A DNA stretch of 64,000 nucleotides from an uncultured Gemmatimonadales bacterium (GTDB taxonomy: Bacteria > Gemmatimonadota > Gemmatimonadetes > Gemmatimonadales > GWC2-71-9), in assembly GCA_963825815.1 (NCBI GenBank), contig CAWGVB010000025.1, positions 52,419 to 116,418 on the forward strand, read 5' to 3'. Below are positions 1 to 3,275 of the stretch, piece after piece. How positions within the stretch are numbered: position 1 is the first letter of the stretch; each line of letters begins with the position of its first letter. The position numbers were made by a program, and so were the translations under genes. The notes under the pieces were generated by a model. It was not told the DNA's origin. It searched no databases and saw nothing but the letters and a program-made list of their open reading frames with translations.

Positions 1-228
1 GTCCGGGATGTTATGGCTGCCTCGGAGCACCAGACTTTCGAGGTCAACTGCGCCACTCACCCGGTGGACGCCGATCGATGTAATCCGGGACATACCTGCA
101 GCATCCGGCCGGTCTGGCATGCGCTCCAGCAGCGAGTGGACGAGCTGCTTGCCAGCATCTCTCTCGCCGATCTGATGAAGCAGGAAACCGAAGTCCAGGA
201 ACTGGTCGGGATCTCGTCAGCAAGCTGA
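1..228 (+). CDS. Rrf2-family (IscR/CymR-like) transcriptional regulator, C-terminal fragment; the 5' end lies outside the window
   Basis: Frame 1 is open from base 1 to TGA 226-228. The tail CATHPVDADRCNPGHTCSIRPVWHALQQRVDELLASISLADL has the three-Cys cluster followed by the W..L....L..SLADL helix typical of Rrf2 proteins. It sits directly upstream of a cysteine-synthesis cluster. Confidence 0.45.
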   Translation, partial: VRDVMAASEHQTFEVNCATHPVDADRCNPGHTCSIRPVWHALQQRVDELLASISLADLMKQETEVQELVGISSAS

Positions 229-250
229 CGCTCTTCGGTTGAGAAACTGA

Positions 251-277
251 GGCCCGACCCAGCGGTCGGGCCTTTTT
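251..277 (+). terminator. Rho-independent terminator after the Rrf2 gene
   Basis: GGCCCGACC-CAGC-GGTCGGGCC forms a 9-bp perfect stem (251-272) followed by TTTTT (273-277). Confidence 0.7.
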
Positions 278-294
278 GCATTGGGAGAGTCGGG

Positions 295-1215
295 ATGAAT
301 GCTGAACCGAGTGGGTCGGAGCCTCCGCTCTGGAGCGCGGTCGGCAACACGCCGCTGCTCCCCATCGCATTGGAAGCTTCTCGCGGAGCGCAGGTCCTGC
401 TCAAGGCTGAGTGGCTCAACCCGGGGGGAAGTGTGAAGGACCGCACTGCCCGCAGCATTCTCCGGGACGCCCTCTGCCGGGGCGAGTTGGCCGGCCGGCG
501 GCTGCTCGATGCCTCCAGCGGCAATACCGGGATTGCCTATGCGATGCTGGGTGCCGCCGCAGGAGTTGAGGTCACGATTTGCGTTCCGGCCAATGCCAGC
601 CCGGAGCGCCGCGCCCTGCTGGAGATCTACGGCGCGGAGGTCGTGCTGACCGACCGGCTGGAGGGGACCGATGGAGCGACCGAGCGGGCCCGCCAAATCG
701 TAGGGGAGGAGCCAGACCGCTACTACTTCGCCGACCAGTACAGCAATCCGGCCAACACAGCGGCGCACCGGGAAACCACCGGCCCGGAAATCTGGAGCCA
801 AACTGCAGGACGGATCACGCACTTCGTGGCGGCGATGGGAACGACCGGAACCATGATGGGAACGGGCGGGTTCCTGAAGGAGAAGAAGCCGGACATCCGG
901 CTCATCGGAGTGCAGCCGGACTCTCCGCTCCACGGGCTCGAGGGGCTCAAGCACTTGGCGACAACAGACCATCCGCCCGCGCTGTACAATCCCGGACTCC
1001 CCGACGCGGTAGCGGAGGTGTCTACCGAGGCGGCCGATCGGACCGCCCGCTGGCTGGCCCGGCACGCCGGATACCTGGTCGGCTGGTCCGCCGGGGCTGC
1101 CGTGGCCGCGGCGCTGGACATCGTGCGGGAGGAGCCGGACGCCTGTGTCGTTGTGATCGGGTGCGACTCGGGGGCGAGATATCTCAGTGACCTTCACCGT
1201 TGGAGGGTCACGTGA
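295..1215 (+). CDS. cysM: PLP-dependent cysteine synthase, CysM type
   Basis: 306-aa ORF with the NPGGSVKDR lysine motif, the SSGNTG loop and a C-terminal GCDSGARYLS. GGGAGA lies upstream of the ATG. Confidence 0.85.
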   Translation: MNAEPSGSEPPLWSAVGNTPLLPIALEASRGAQVLLKAEWLNPGGSVKDRTARSILRDALCRGELAGRRLLDASSGNTGIAYAMLGAAAGVEVTICVPANASPERRALLEIYGAEVVLTDRLEGTDGATERARQIVGEEPDRYYFADQYSNPANTAAHRETTGPEIWSQTAGRITHFVAAMGTTGTMMGTGGFLKEKKPDIRLIGVQPDSPLHGLEGLKHLATTDHPPALYNPGLPDAVAEVSTEAADRTARWLARHAGYLVGWSAGAAVAAALDIVREEPDACVVVIGCDSGARYLSDLHRWRVT

Positions 1216-1637
1216 CGTTGCGGGTCAGTGAGACGCTGCTGGGGTCGATTCATCGCGAGGGGGAGCGGGCCTACCCGGGGGAATGCTGCGGCGTGCTGGC
1301 GGGGCAACCGGGTGAGATCAAGCAGGTCCGCAGACTGCTCCCGGTGGTGAATCGCCGGGCAGACGACCCGCACCGGTATCTGATCGCCCCCGAGGATCTC
1401 CAGAGAGTCGAGGCCGAGGTTCGCCAGGCTGACCTCGAGGTGCTCGGGTTTTACCACTCGCACCCTGATCACCCGGCGGCGCCCTCGTCATTCGACGCCG
1501 AGCACGCCTGGCCCTGGTACAGTTATCTGATCGTGCGGGTCGACCGCGGACGCGCGGTCGAGGCCACCAGTTGGCAGCTGGCCGGCGATCGGTCGGCCAT
1601 GTTGCCGGAGTCTCTCGACGTATTCAATGAGGTCTGA
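1212..1637 (+). CDS. mec: JAMM/MPN+ zinc metallopeptidase (Mec+/CysO-hydrolase type)
   Basis: Has GECCGVLAG and an intact JAMM motif HSHPDHPAAPSSFD (HxHx7Sx2D). I place the start at GTG 1212, which forms a GTGA overlap with the cysM stop and has GGAGGG 5 nt upstream. The ORF track offers TTG 1200. Confidence 0.85.
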   Translation: MTLRVSETLLGSIHREGERAYPGECCGVLAGQPGEIKQVRRLLPVVNRRADDPHRYLIAPEDLQRVEAEVRQADLEVLGFYHSHPDHPAAPSSFDAEHAWPWYSYLIVRVDRGRAVEATSWQLAGDRSAMLPESLDVFNEV

Positions 1638-1639
1638 AT

Positions 1640-3070
1640 ATGTCTGTCACCGTGTCGATCCCCACGCCGCTGCGGAGCTTTACCGCCGGGCAGGACACCA
1701 TCCAGTTGTCGGGCCACACCGTGGGCGAGGTGCTGGATGGGCTGCTCGCCGCCCATATCGGCCTCAAGCGCCACCTGCTGCAGGACGACGGCCGGCTTCG
1801 GAACTTCGTCAACTTGTACTTGAACGAGACCGACATCCGGCATCTGTCCTCCACGGCTACACCGGTGCAGTCCGGGGATGTGCTCACCATCGTGCCCAGC
1901 ATCGCCGGGGGATCTCCGGCGCTGGGGAGCGAAGTCGCGCTGTCCCATGCTGAGGTCCTGCGTTATTCCAGACACCTGCTACTCCCAGAGGTGGGCATTG
2001 CCGGCCAACGCAAGCTCAAGTCGGCGCGGGTCCTCACGGTCGGTGCCGGGGGGCTAGGCTCGCCGCTGTCGCTCTATCTGGCGGCCGCGGGAGTGGGGAC
2101 GATCGGGATCGTGGACTTTGACGTGGTCGACCTGACGAACTTGCAGCGGCAGATCGTCCACGGCACGTCTACACTGGGTCAACCCAAGCTCGAGTCGGCC
2201 GAGGCTCGGCTGGGCGATGTGAATCCCAATGTGCGGATCGAGAAGCACGAGACGCGGCTGACCTCCCAAAACGCGCTCGAGATTCTGGGGGAGTACGACA
2301 TCATCGTGGATGGGACGGACAACTTCCCCACCCGGTATCTCGTCAACGATGCATGCGTGCTGCTCGGAAAGCCGAACGTCTACGGCAGCATCTTCCGCTT
2401 CGAGGGGCAGGCGTCGGTCTTCGATTCCCGTCAGGGTCCTTGCTACCGGTGTCTCTACTCCGAGCCACCCCCTCCGGGATTGGTCCCGAGCTGTGCTGAG
2501 GGAGGAGTACTCGGGGTCCTGCCTGGCATCATCGGGAGCATTCAGGCGCTGGAGACGATCAAGTGGATCATCGGCGCGGGCGACTCGCTCGTCGGGCGGC
2601 TCCTGCTGTTCGATGCCCTGAAGCTCCGCTTCCGCGAGCTCCAATTGCGGAAGGATCCCTCCTGCCCAGTCTGCGGAGAGCAGCCGAGCATTCGGGAGTT
2701 GATCGACTATGAGGCGTTCTGCGGAATCGGTGCGGAACCCGCCTATGACGGACCCGAAGTCACGGCTGAAGAGCTCAGCCGGGAAATGCAGCAGAAAGGT
2801 TCGGAGCTGGTTCTGATCGATGTGCGGGAGCCGCATGAGTGGGAAATCGCCCACATCGAGGGCGCGCGACTGATCCCGCTCGGCCAGCTGCCGGAGCGCC
2901 TTGGTGAGCTCGACGGTCACGCCGAGATCGTGACCCACTGCCATCACGGAGTTCGTTCCATGAAAGCGCTCCAGCTGCTCAAAGGCGCCGGCTTCAGCCG
3001 GGTTCGCAGCCTCGCGGGAGGAATCGATGCCTGGGCGGATCGGATTGAAGTAGGGATGCCCCGGTATTAG
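1640..3070 (+). CDS. moeZ: Fusion protein: MoaD/ThiS/CysO-like ubiquitin-fold sulfur carrier (aa 1-91, ending IAGG) + MoeZ/MoeB-type E1 adenylyltransferase + C-terminal rhodanese
   Basis: The N-terminal 91 aa end in VPSIAGG (GG at nt 1907-1912). After the linker SPALGSEV comes ALSHAEVLRYSRHLLLPEVG..VGAGGLGS..CYRC..CPVCG, which is collinear with M. tuberculosis MoeZ as I recall it. The rhodanese active site is CHHGVRS. The frame is continuous for 476 aa. Confidence 0.85.
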   Translation: MSVTVSIPTPLRSFTAGQDTIQLSGHTVGEVLDGLLAAHIGLKRHLLQDDGRLRNFVNLYLNETDIRHLSSTATPVQSGDVLTIVPSIAGGSPALGSEVALSHAEVLRYSRHLLLPEVGIAGQRKLKSARVLTVGAGGLGSPLSLYLAAAGVGTIGIVDFDVVDLTNLQRQIVHGTSTLGQPKLESAEARLGDVNPNVRIEKHETRLTSQNALEILGEYDIIVDGTDNFPTRYLVNDACVLLGKPNVYGSIFRFEGQASVFDSRQGPCYRCLYSEPPPPGLVPSCAEGGVLGVLPGIIGSIQALETIKWIIGAGDSLVGRLLLFDALKLRFRELQLRKDPSCPVCGEQPSIRELIDYEAFCGIGAEPAYDGPEVTAEELSREMQQKGSELVLIDVREPHEWEIAHIEGARLIPLGQLPERLGELDGHAEIVTHCHHGVRSMKALQLLKGAGFSRVRSLAGGIDAWADRIEVGMPRY

Positions 3071-3082
3071 GTTTTCGCGCTC

Positions 3083-3166
3083 GCCGAAGTGGTGGAACTG
3101 GTAGACGCGCTGCGTTCAGGGCGCAGTGGGCGCAAGCCCGTGCGGGTTCGAGTCCCGCCTTCGGCA
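3083..3166 (+). tRNA. tRNA-Leu (anticodon CAG), class II with long variable arm
   Basis: Acceptor stem GCCGAAG/CTTCGGC, anticodon stem-loop CTGCG-TTCAGGG-CGCAG, long variable arm, T arm GCGGGTTCGAGTCCCGC, discriminator A. No encoded CCA. Confidence 0.9.
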
Positions 3167-3177
3167 TGAGGAACCTG

Positions 3178-3230
3178 AAAAGACGGGAAGGACGGGAAAG
3201 ACGGCCTTACTTCCCGACCTTCCCGTCTTT
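3178..3230. repeat. GGGAAG-type long hairpin downstream of tRNA-Leu
   Basis: AAAGACGGGAAGGACGGGAAAG (3178-3199) pairs with CTTCCCGACCTTCCCGTCTTT (3210-3230). That gives about 21 bp with one mismatch and one bulge, and a 10-nt loop. It shares the GGGAAG core with the elements at 36408, 37995 and 54026. Confidence 0.6.
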
Positions 3231-3275
3231 CCCTTCCTTCCCACCTTGGCTTATCCTTTGCTTAGGATACCCCTC

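Follow-up and report, generated by a model that had tools for sequence, protein, structure and literature searches.

The window analysed here is a stretch of 64,000 nt from contig CAWGVB010000025.1 of an uncultured member of the Gemmatimonadales, a soil bacterium, and the locus under study occupies its first 3.1 kb. Four co-directional genes lie there on the forward strand: the 3' end of an Rrf2-family regulator gene, a cysM-like cysteine synthase gene, a gene for a JAMM metallopeptidase, and an open reading frame (ORF) of 476 amino acids (aa). In the product of this ORF, a sulfur carrier domain ending in Gly-Gly (GG) is followed on the same polypeptide by an adenylyltransferase (E1) and a rhodanese domain (Table 1). 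A Shine-Dalgarno sequence, GGAGGG, precedes the GTG of the JAMM gene at 1202-1207, and only 2 nt separate the stop codon of this gene from the ATG of the 476-aa ORF. The three genes from cysM onwards are translationally coupled. The initial annotation of this DNA had proposed the same succession of cysM, a JAMM gene with an intact motif and one uninterrupted ORF, and both the reading frames and the motif residues were found as it gave them.

Table 1. Features of the locus, in window coordinates
Feature	Position	Strand	Remarks
Rrf2-family regulator, 3' end	1..228	+	gene begins before the window; Pfam Rrf2 match, last 71 aa
Terminator-like hairpin	249..278	+	GGCCCGACC-CAGC-GGTCGGGCC then TTTTT; between Rrf2 and cysM; found by scan
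cysM-like cysteine synthase (pyridoxal phosphate (PLP) enzyme)	295..1215	+	ATG 295 to TGA 1215, 306 aa; Lys48 in SVKDR
JAMM/MPN+ metallopeptidase	1212..1637	+	GTG 1212 to TGA 1637; GTGA overlap with cysM
476-aa ORF: carrier, linker, E1, rhodanese	1640..3070	+	ATG 1640 to TAG 3070
CysO-type beta-grasp carrier domain, aa 1-91	1640..1912	+	ends IVPSIAGG; Gly-Gly codons 1907-1912
Linker, aa 92-100 (SPALGSEVA)	1913..1939	+	proposed cleavage site Gly91/Ser92
MoeZ/MoeB-type adenylyltransferase (E1), aa 101-364	1940..2731	+	GAGGLG loop, two zinc Cys pairs, crossover-loop Cys285
Rhodanese domain, aa 375-466	2762..3037	+	active-site Cys434 (TGC 2939-2941) in CHHGVRS

Profile searches placed all three domains of the 476-aa ORF above the curated Pfam cut-offs. 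ThiS matched aa 6-91 with an E-value of 9.6e-9 (36 bits, cut-off 22.5), and the NCBIfam SAMP1 model gave 60.4 bits on aa 1-91 for a cut-off of 60. The same 91 residues align end to end with the CysO protein of Mycobacterium tuberculosis (3dwg_C, E 1e-19), the alignment stopping on the GG, and again end to end with the Amycolatopsis carrier 4n6e_B (E 6e-20), with the GG as last residues. Judged by these profiles and alignments, the N-terminal 91 aa are a genuine CysO-type carrier and an orthologue of CysO. They had previously been taken for a beta-grasp of the MoaD/ThiS/CysO type ending in VPSIAGG, a view with which the ThiS profile, the CysO alignment and the predicted beta-grasp agree.

The remainder of the ORF matched Pfam ThiF (aa 109-344, 5e-82) and Rhodanese (aa 375-466, 2e-20), and its E1 fold matches those of Uba4 (6yub), MoeB (1jw9) and ThiF (1zud). 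The zinc-binding pairs C268/C271 and C342/C345, the crossover-loop Cys285 (TGT 2492-2494) and the GAGGLG loop are all conserved, and C434, G437, R439 and S440 of the rhodanese are invariant among distant fused homologues. The scores with the NCBIfam models for MoeB (PRK07411, 529 bits, cut-off 633) and MoeZ (PRK07878, 504 bits, cut-off 647) stay below both equivalog cut-offs. On these scores, the E1-rhodanese part has MoeZ/MoeB architecture and belongs to this close family, without being a curated equivalog, and the earlier assignment to a MoeZ-type adenylyltransferase followed by a rhodanese with CHHGVRS is borne out.

Since the conserved GG lies within a continuous ORF, one explanation to be weighed is a sequencing or assembly artefact, in which an indel in the G-run at 1907-1911 would have merged two genes. 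Indeed, this G5 homopolymer sits exactly at the carrier-E1 junction of the window. However, the uninterrupted ORF recurs in hundreds of independent contigs and in about 75 species genomes, assembled from short reads and from long reads. In a scan of one genome per species with this single protein as query, which returned matches in Gemmatimonadales only, the ORF was found in about 75 genomes at 76-97% identity, megabase-scale contigs included, with the gene order Rrf2, cysM, JAMM, fusion, smpB kept across them; the carrier is fused in all of these species. The protein is also 100% identical to the protein cluster P0001. Among the top 120 homologue clusters, drawn from JGI, ENA, NCBI and Logan assemblies and 87-100% identical, almost all members are 475-477 aa long and all contain the three domains, two shorter ones being marked as partial. 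The G5 run itself occurs in only 5 of 78 Gemmatimonadales loci, and neither alternative frame stops directly after the GG. An artefact of this kind is thus next to impossible, and the former worry about an indel at the junction can be dismissed. Programmed frameshifting at the G-run, as a source of free carrier, was likewise rejected, since neither alternative frame offers a prompt stop and the run is absent from 73 of the 78 relatives.

The sequence IVPSIAGG is 100% conserved in 75 full-length relatives, and in the 78 loci the Gly-Gly codons, GGG GGA in the window (Gly90-Gly91, the end of an AGG at aa 89-91), change synonymously (GGC GGC, GGT GGA and others) with the frame kept. These two features together indicate purifying selection on the Gly-Gly at the protein level. 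The carrier-E1 fusion is a conserved gene under selection and not an assembly error.

Between the GG and the E1 core, the sequence contains no in-frame stop codon and no ATG, GTG or TTG. This part of the initial annotation stands; the linker, which it gave as 8 aa (SPALGSEV), comes to 9 aa here. A separate E1 made from an internal translation start was accordingly rejected. The translated product has no free C-terminal carboxylate on Gly91, as the ORF runs for 385 further residues, and a free carrier end would therefore need proteolysis. By the established chemistry of E1 enzymes, an internal glycine has no carboxylate to be adenylated, so that the conservation of the GG argues for its exposure.

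The junction is a fast-evolving part of the protein. In the 75 full-length relatives, the linker shows a mean pairwise identity of 0.50 (minimum 0), against 0.90 for the E1 part, and the residue after the GG is S, R or A, followed by P in 71 of the 75. The length of the linker is 9-13 aa in Gemmatimonadales and ranges from 2 to about 40 aa in fused forms elsewhere. An AlphaFold2 model of the 476-aa protein, built on 14 fused homologues (mean predicted local distance difference test score, pLDDT, 80.6), predicts with confidence a beta-grasp over aa 1-87 as well as the E1 and rhodanese domains, whereas pLDDT falls below 50 over aa 88-114, spanning the GG and the linker. The linker is thus predicted to be disordered, as would be expected where an endopeptidase cuts.

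The candidate for this endopeptidase is encoded next to the fusion. The product of the JAMM gene matches Prok-JAB (6e-26, 91 bits, cut-off 25) and retains the complete motif E24...H82-S-H84-x7-S92-x2-D95. Its score with the desampylase equivalog model (83 bits) is below the cut-off of 130, and its closest solved structure is 2kcq, described as a member of the Mov34/MPN/PAD-1 family (E 7e-22). Across the Gemmatimonadales loci L001-L080, it was also observed that JAMM is the fastest-diverging of the proteins, with 57-70% identity to the window, as compared with 76-97% for the fused protein and 67-93% for CysM.

We consider it probable, at about 0.68, that the locus is a cysteine-synthesis operon of the thiocarboxylate type, in which the JAMM enzyme cuts after Gly91 and the standard route to cysteine follows. 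In this scheme, which is built on sequence comparison, the adjacent JAMM enzyme would first hydrolyse the Gly91-Ser92 bond, splitting the chain into a carrier of 91 aa, its Gly-Gly carboxylate now free, and an E1-rhodanese of 385 aa whose new N-terminal peptide would be SPALGSEVALSHAEVLR. The E1 domain would then adenylate Gly91, and the persulfide of the rhodanese Cys434 would turn the adenylate into a thiocarboxylate. CysM would join the carrier-bound sulfur to activated serine, yielding carrier-cysteine, and the same JAMM enzyme would finally hydrolyse the same type of bond (Gly-Gly-X), so that cysteine is freed and the carrier recycled. Such a fusion could have arisen when a cysO gene lost the stop codon that separated it from an adjacent moeZ. 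In metagenomic loci, free E1 enzymes begin with a variable N-terminal leader that the linker of the fused proteins resembles, which fits this origin, and the loss may have been tolerated because carriers of this family often already bear a tail after the GG that JAMM must trim.

The proposed processing role of JAMM is supported by its distribution. A metagenome scan with a profile of the fused form yielded 80 loci, annotated with profiles built from the sequences of this analysis. The carrier is fused in about 40 of them, and in about 30 it has a gene of its own immediately upstream of the E1 gene. The carriers are of three kinds: those ending exactly on GG, those with 1-29 extra residues (for example R, KS, RAL, GRR, LTGA or VPTMELAS) and those fused to E1. 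When only loci with enough flanking DNA were counted (62 assessable, with a window of about 2 kb for JAMM), a JAMM gene was nearby in 48 of the 55 loci whose carrier has residues after the GG, either a tail or a fused E1, and missing in 7, as compared with 1 present and 6 missing among the 7 loci with an exact GG end; the Fisher p of 1.7e-4 ignores shared ancestry and comes from a biased sample, the best 80 matches to the fused profile, which tempers its weight for the processing scheme. In loci without a nearby cysteine synthase, where the known role of JAMM in cysteine release cannot be the explanation, the proportions are 17/20 and 0/6 (p 3.6e-4, with the same reservations). By these counts, JAMM accompanies carriers whose C-terminus needs to be exposed, and the direction is clear despite the sampling. 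The proposal of the initial annotation that the adjacent JAMM enzyme exposes the internal GG is thereby strengthened, both by this association and by the presence of JAMM at fused loci that lack a cysteine synthase.

Alternatively, the precursor could be cut after the GG by some other protease or by autocatalysis, with JAMM acting only as Mec+ does, to free cysteine from the adduct. In mycobacteria, the fusion protein MoaX is cleaved between Gly82 and Ser83, as required for its activity, by a protease that its authors could not identify (PMC4326299). The seven loci with residues after the GG and no nearby JAMM would fit such a case, and cysteine release alone explains the presence of JAMM in CysM operons. 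On the other hand, JAMM adjoins fused genes in loci devoid of cysteine synthase and is absent beside all six exact-GG carriers that have no cysteine synthase near them. Related JAMM enzymes are, moreover, known to cut linear carrier fusions: Deinococcus DRJAMM cuts the MoaD-MoaE fusion DR2607, which is needed for its activation (PMC8832034), and HvJAMM1 of Haloferax cuts linear SAMP1 fusions, SAMP1-MoaE among them (PMC4443979). A maturation independent of JAMM thus appears quite unlikely.

Fusions of this kind extend well beyond the Gemmatimonadales. When aa 1-160 of the fused protein were searched against 1.84 billion cluster representatives, many proteins running without a break through carrier, linker and E1 were recovered, with identities down to about 41%, and AGG is invariant in the distant fused forms to that same level. 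A profile search gave 7,948 matches, the best 120 of which all combine ThiS with ThiF; source names among these 120 include Acidobacteria, Vicinamibacterales, Acidimicrobiia, Planctomycetota and Gemmatimonadales. One cluster of fused forms includes a member from Evtepia (Firmicutes). The carrier-E1 fusion is therefore widespread and less unusual than the initial annotation had assumed.

Nine other fused genes were looked up singly. A separate JAMM gene adjoins eight of them, often overlapping, and in the ninth, L088, the JAB domain lies inside the adjoining PALP ORF, so that this locus reads PALP+JAB as a single ORF, then the fusion. The order PALP, JAB, fusion is found in P0146, L087 and L090, and follows an Rrf2 gene in L089, a metagenome-assembled genome (MAG) of Acidobacteria; it recurs in Gemmatimonadales, Acidobacteria and many metagenomic loci. 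L081 shows JAB, fusion, PALP. Three loci, L082, L084 and L086, lack a cysteine synthase yet contain the JAMM-fusion pair: JAB and the fusion are neighboured by a cysteine desulfurase and a PP-loop ATPase (tRNA-thiolation type) in L082, the fusion and JAB stand alone in L084, and JAB and the fusion are joined by a ThiG-like gene in L086. Occurring in such varied contexts, the JAMM-fusion pair behaves as a module joined to different sulfur-acceptor enzymes.

Some of these loci have further particularities. In L081 (5001-6461), the fused gene has the permuted order carrier, rhodanese, E1, with the overlapping JAB gene upstream and the PALP gene downstream, which suggests that E1 enzymes of two domain orders have each acquired the carrier. 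The PALP+JAB ORF of L088 (2652-4010) is one called gene of 452 aa directly upstream of the fused carrier-E1 gene, on a contig of 355 kb where the E1 gene beside it is split. Either a frameshift artefact or a true fusion of CysM and JAMM could account for this ORF. In L087 and L090, the fusion is followed downstream by genes for Rrf2, cysteine desulfurase, NifU/IscU, IscA-like and HscB-like proteins, that is, an ISC operon for iron-sulfur (Fe-S) cluster assembly, which puts the carrier system beside its likely sulfur donor.

A distinct short-linker subfamily of ubiquitin-like (Ubl)-E1 fusions was also noticed (L137, L138, L143 and L146). Its members have GG-A-x-x-F-T/S-EEQ at the junction, about 365-395 aa and no rhodanese, with a cysteine synthase gene directly upstream (downstream in L143) and no adjoining JAB. 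The fused domain of this subfamily may have a different role.

These forms bear on the possibility that the fused beta-grasp is never cleaved, stays permanently with the E1 for docking or regulation, as proposed for ThiF fusions of the Campylobacter type, and leaves the carrier work to a free protein whose gene lies elsewhere in the genome. In 2006, Iyer et al. observed that Ubl-ThiF fusions co-occur with solo ThiS and inferred a different role for the fused domain (PMC1779556), and a free tailed carrier adjoins the fused gene in L137 and L143. For the window itself, the carrier search spans the 64 kb, and a free carrier may be encoded outside them. However, the fused domain is a full CysO orthologue with an invariant AGG, and neither the window nor the looked-up loci with fused forms of its type contain a called free carrier gene; in the window, home-built profiles run on all six frames revealed no free carrier and no second E1. 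The linker, hypervariable and predicted to be disordered, looks like a discarded spacer, and JAMM tracks residues after the GG. We therefore regard a permanently uncleaved carrier domain as unlikely.

Returning to the scheme in which JAMM cuts after Gly91, several observations weigh against it. Cysteine release alone would call for a JAMM gene in a CysO/CysM operon, so that its presence in the window does not by itself show a processing role. Of the 55 loci whose carrier continues past the GG, 7 lack a nearby JAMM. Next to the fused gene, L137 and L143 hold a separate free carrier with a tail (GGGHFGAQG and GGGWA, respectively), together with a further PALP and JAB, and the fused Ubl is thus not always the only carrier; for the present organism, a free carrier or a second E1 could lie outside the window. 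The CysM of the window is only 37% identical to that of M. tuberculosis (3dwg_A, Rv1336), lacks the mycobacterial C-terminal tail and has a Lys at the position of Arg220, so that its substrate and its dependence on the carrier can only be presumed. More generally, for the 476-aa protein, we infer cleavage, thiocarboxylate formation and the cysteine steps alike.

The properties of CysM also raise the question of the product, which might be another thio-amino acid or metabolite, or the module might mainly serve molybdenum cofactor, thiamine or tRNA thiolation. The enzyme (Pfam PALP, 8e-66) falls under the curated cut-offs of all cysteine synthase equivalog models, TIGR01138 cysM included (308 bits, cut-off 394), and is not of the M. 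tuberculosis type. Furthermore, the JAMM-fusion pair joins ThiG-like or tRNA-thiolation-type genes in other lineages, and MoeZ-type E1s can serve several carriers (PMC3227635). Nevertheless, the top family matches are all cysteine synthases (9e-92 for cysM), and the closest solved relatives are the CysM enzymes of Escherichia coli and Salmonella, the former outscoring that of M. tuberculosis. Its Lys48 in SVKDR corresponds in alignments to the lysine that binds PLP in CysM structures, and the stop/start codon overlap provides the operon linkage with JAMM and the carrier. Since the carrier is closest to CysO, and the operon fits a type already described in 2006, composed of ThiS/MoaD, E1-rhodanese, JAB and cysteine synthase (PMC1779556), a product other than cysteine seems very unlikely.

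A further variant would make the JAMM cut an obligatory licensing step: the tethered substrate would possibly occupy or block the adenylation site, and a cut controlled by an Rrf2 regulator of the Fe-S type would activate carrier and E1 together in a 1:1 ratio. This is a tentative idea, which we hold to be rather unlikely. If it were true, the locus would be a bacterial metabolic counterpart of ubiquitin-precursor maturation, and the fusion a control point rather than the outcome of neutral stop-codon loss.

Concerning the regulator, a full-length Rrf2 orthologue (L002, 152 aa) scored 105 bits with TIGR00738 rrf2_super, above the cut-off. Assignments to IscR or CymR were rejected, as the scores are below both cut-offs. 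The C-terminal part contains three Cys in the arrangement C-x9-C-x5-C. An Rrf2 gene lies upstream of cysM in about 70 relatives and one Acidobacteria MAG (L089); in the latter, the Rrf2 and cysteine synthase genes abut without a spacer.

The hairpin between Rrf2 and cysM spans 249-274, with a T-run to 278, and leaves 16 nt before the cysM ATG. The regulator and terminator noted earlier are thus present, with this spacing instead of the 17 nt given. The hairpin folds with -34.8 kcal/mol (z -3.6), and the pattern CCCGRCC-N3-6-GGYCGGG plus T4-7 is found in 69 of 70 orthologous Rrf2-cysM spacers, with compensatory changes in the stem and variable loops. It is not a dispersed repeat, being the single such site in the 64-kb window, and no Rfam family matched the cysM leader. 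Additionally, the bases just after the Rrf2 stop (CGCTCTTC, window 229-290) can pair with the Shine-Dalgarno region of cysM (GGGAGAG), extending the hairpin to a long stem that would hide the ribosome-binding site; this applies to the window and its closest relatives, and more distant relatives have weaker versions of the pairing. From the layout, it is reasonable to suppose that there is no room for an independent cysM promoter, and the simplest reading would be that cysM is transcribed together with Rrf2 from the promoter of the latter, the hairpin reducing or controlling read-through. On the other side of the operon, a strong purine/pyrimidine-rich hairpin (GGGAAGGACGGGAAAGACGG ... CCGTCTTTCCCTTCCTTCCC, window 3180-3245; -55 kcal/mol, z -5.5) lies between tRNA-Leu(CAG) (3083-3166) and smpB. 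It gave weak, sub-threshold Rfam matches to a microRNA precursor and to IhtA, on both strands, and may be the terminator of the upstream unit.

The system most similar to this locus is the CysO/CysM/Mec+/MoeZ pathway of M. tuberculosis. Both comprise the same four activities, the carrier aligns with CysO, the E1 is built like MoeZ and ends in a rhodanese, and the genes for carrier, JAMM and cysteine synthase share one operon. They differ in that the carrier of the window is fused to its E1 with the GG internal, in the gene order (cysM, JAMM, carrier/E1, with the E1 inside the operon), in the Rrf2 regulator and in the CysM features described above. As in the MoaD-MoaE fusions, the carrier is in frame with a partner enzyme, a small residue follows the GG and, where the protease is known, JAMM makes the cut. 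The partner in those fusions is the acceptor MoaE and the product molybdopterin, whereas here the partner is the activating E1, the product probably cysteine, and the cleavage a deduction from sequence.

Removal of residues after the GG by a cluster-encoded JAMM before adenylation has been proposed for QbsE, trimmed by QbsD, and CxnE, trimmed by CxnF (PMC5925218), and unfused relatives of the window carrier bear the comparable short tails of 1-29 residues. The window displays the genomic features of JAMM-processed precursors of the QbsE, CxnE and MoaX type, namely a carrier that continues past its GG and a JAMM gene within the cluster. Unlike in QbsE and CxnE, its "tail" is a 385-aa enzyme, which would be functional after release. 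Ubiquitin precursors, such as polyubiquitin or CsUb of Caldiarchaeum, whose GG is exposed by the JAMM/MPN+ peptidase CsRpn11 of the same operon (PMC6043591), are likewise ubiquitin-fold proteins made with residues after the GG. In contrast to these, the locus has no E2, E3 or conjugation machinery, and its expected product is a thiocarboxylate rather than a protein conjugate.

Fusions of a beta-grasp domain N-terminal to an adenylating domain were described before. Ubl-ThiF fusions of the Campylobacter type, with solo ThiS persisting, were listed in 2006 together with the operon type discussed above (PMC1779556), and Ubl-E1 fusions in 2010 (PMC2948915); MoaD-MoeB and MoaD-MoeB-rhodanese (MoaD-MoeBR) fusions, listed in 2024, were assigned to molybdenum cofactor synthesis and linked to Acidobacteria proteins (PMC11237513). 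These reports, which also cover the Ubl-E1-TBP of Thaumarchaeota, gave the architecture without a processing mechanism, with a role in thiamine or molybdenum cofactor synthesis or, given the solo ThiS, a non-carrier role. The fusion of the window differs from them in lying in a cysM-JAMM operon with no solo carrier nearby. In the literature, we found no paper that places the fusion in a cysM-JAMM cysteine operon or names the neighbouring JAMM as its maturase, and none that links JAMM genes to carriers extending beyond the GG. Collectively, these comparisons identify the fusion locus as a variant, real and widespread, of an established pathway rather than a system of a new kind. Its proposed mechanism is plausible in view of strong precedents, and a specialist would find it only modestly surprising.

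The 476-aa homologues are named in their sources only as MoeB or adenylyltransferase/sulfurtransferase, and partial copies as MoaD family protein, ThiF family adenylyltransferase or ubiquitin-like small modifier protein 1. Since the carrier domain is hidden in such product names, reconstructions of the pathway in Gemmatimonadota, Acidobacteriota and other groups may report the carrier as missing. Furthermore, the co-occurrence of JAMM with tailed and fused carriers points to a simple rule by which processing enzymes might be predicted among bacterial JAMM genes. The 476-aa protein offers a natural single-polypeptide substrate for asking whether one JAMM enzyme does two jobs on Gly-Gly-X, precursor maturation and product release, a question that bears on Mec+-type enzymes and on the protease of MoaX.

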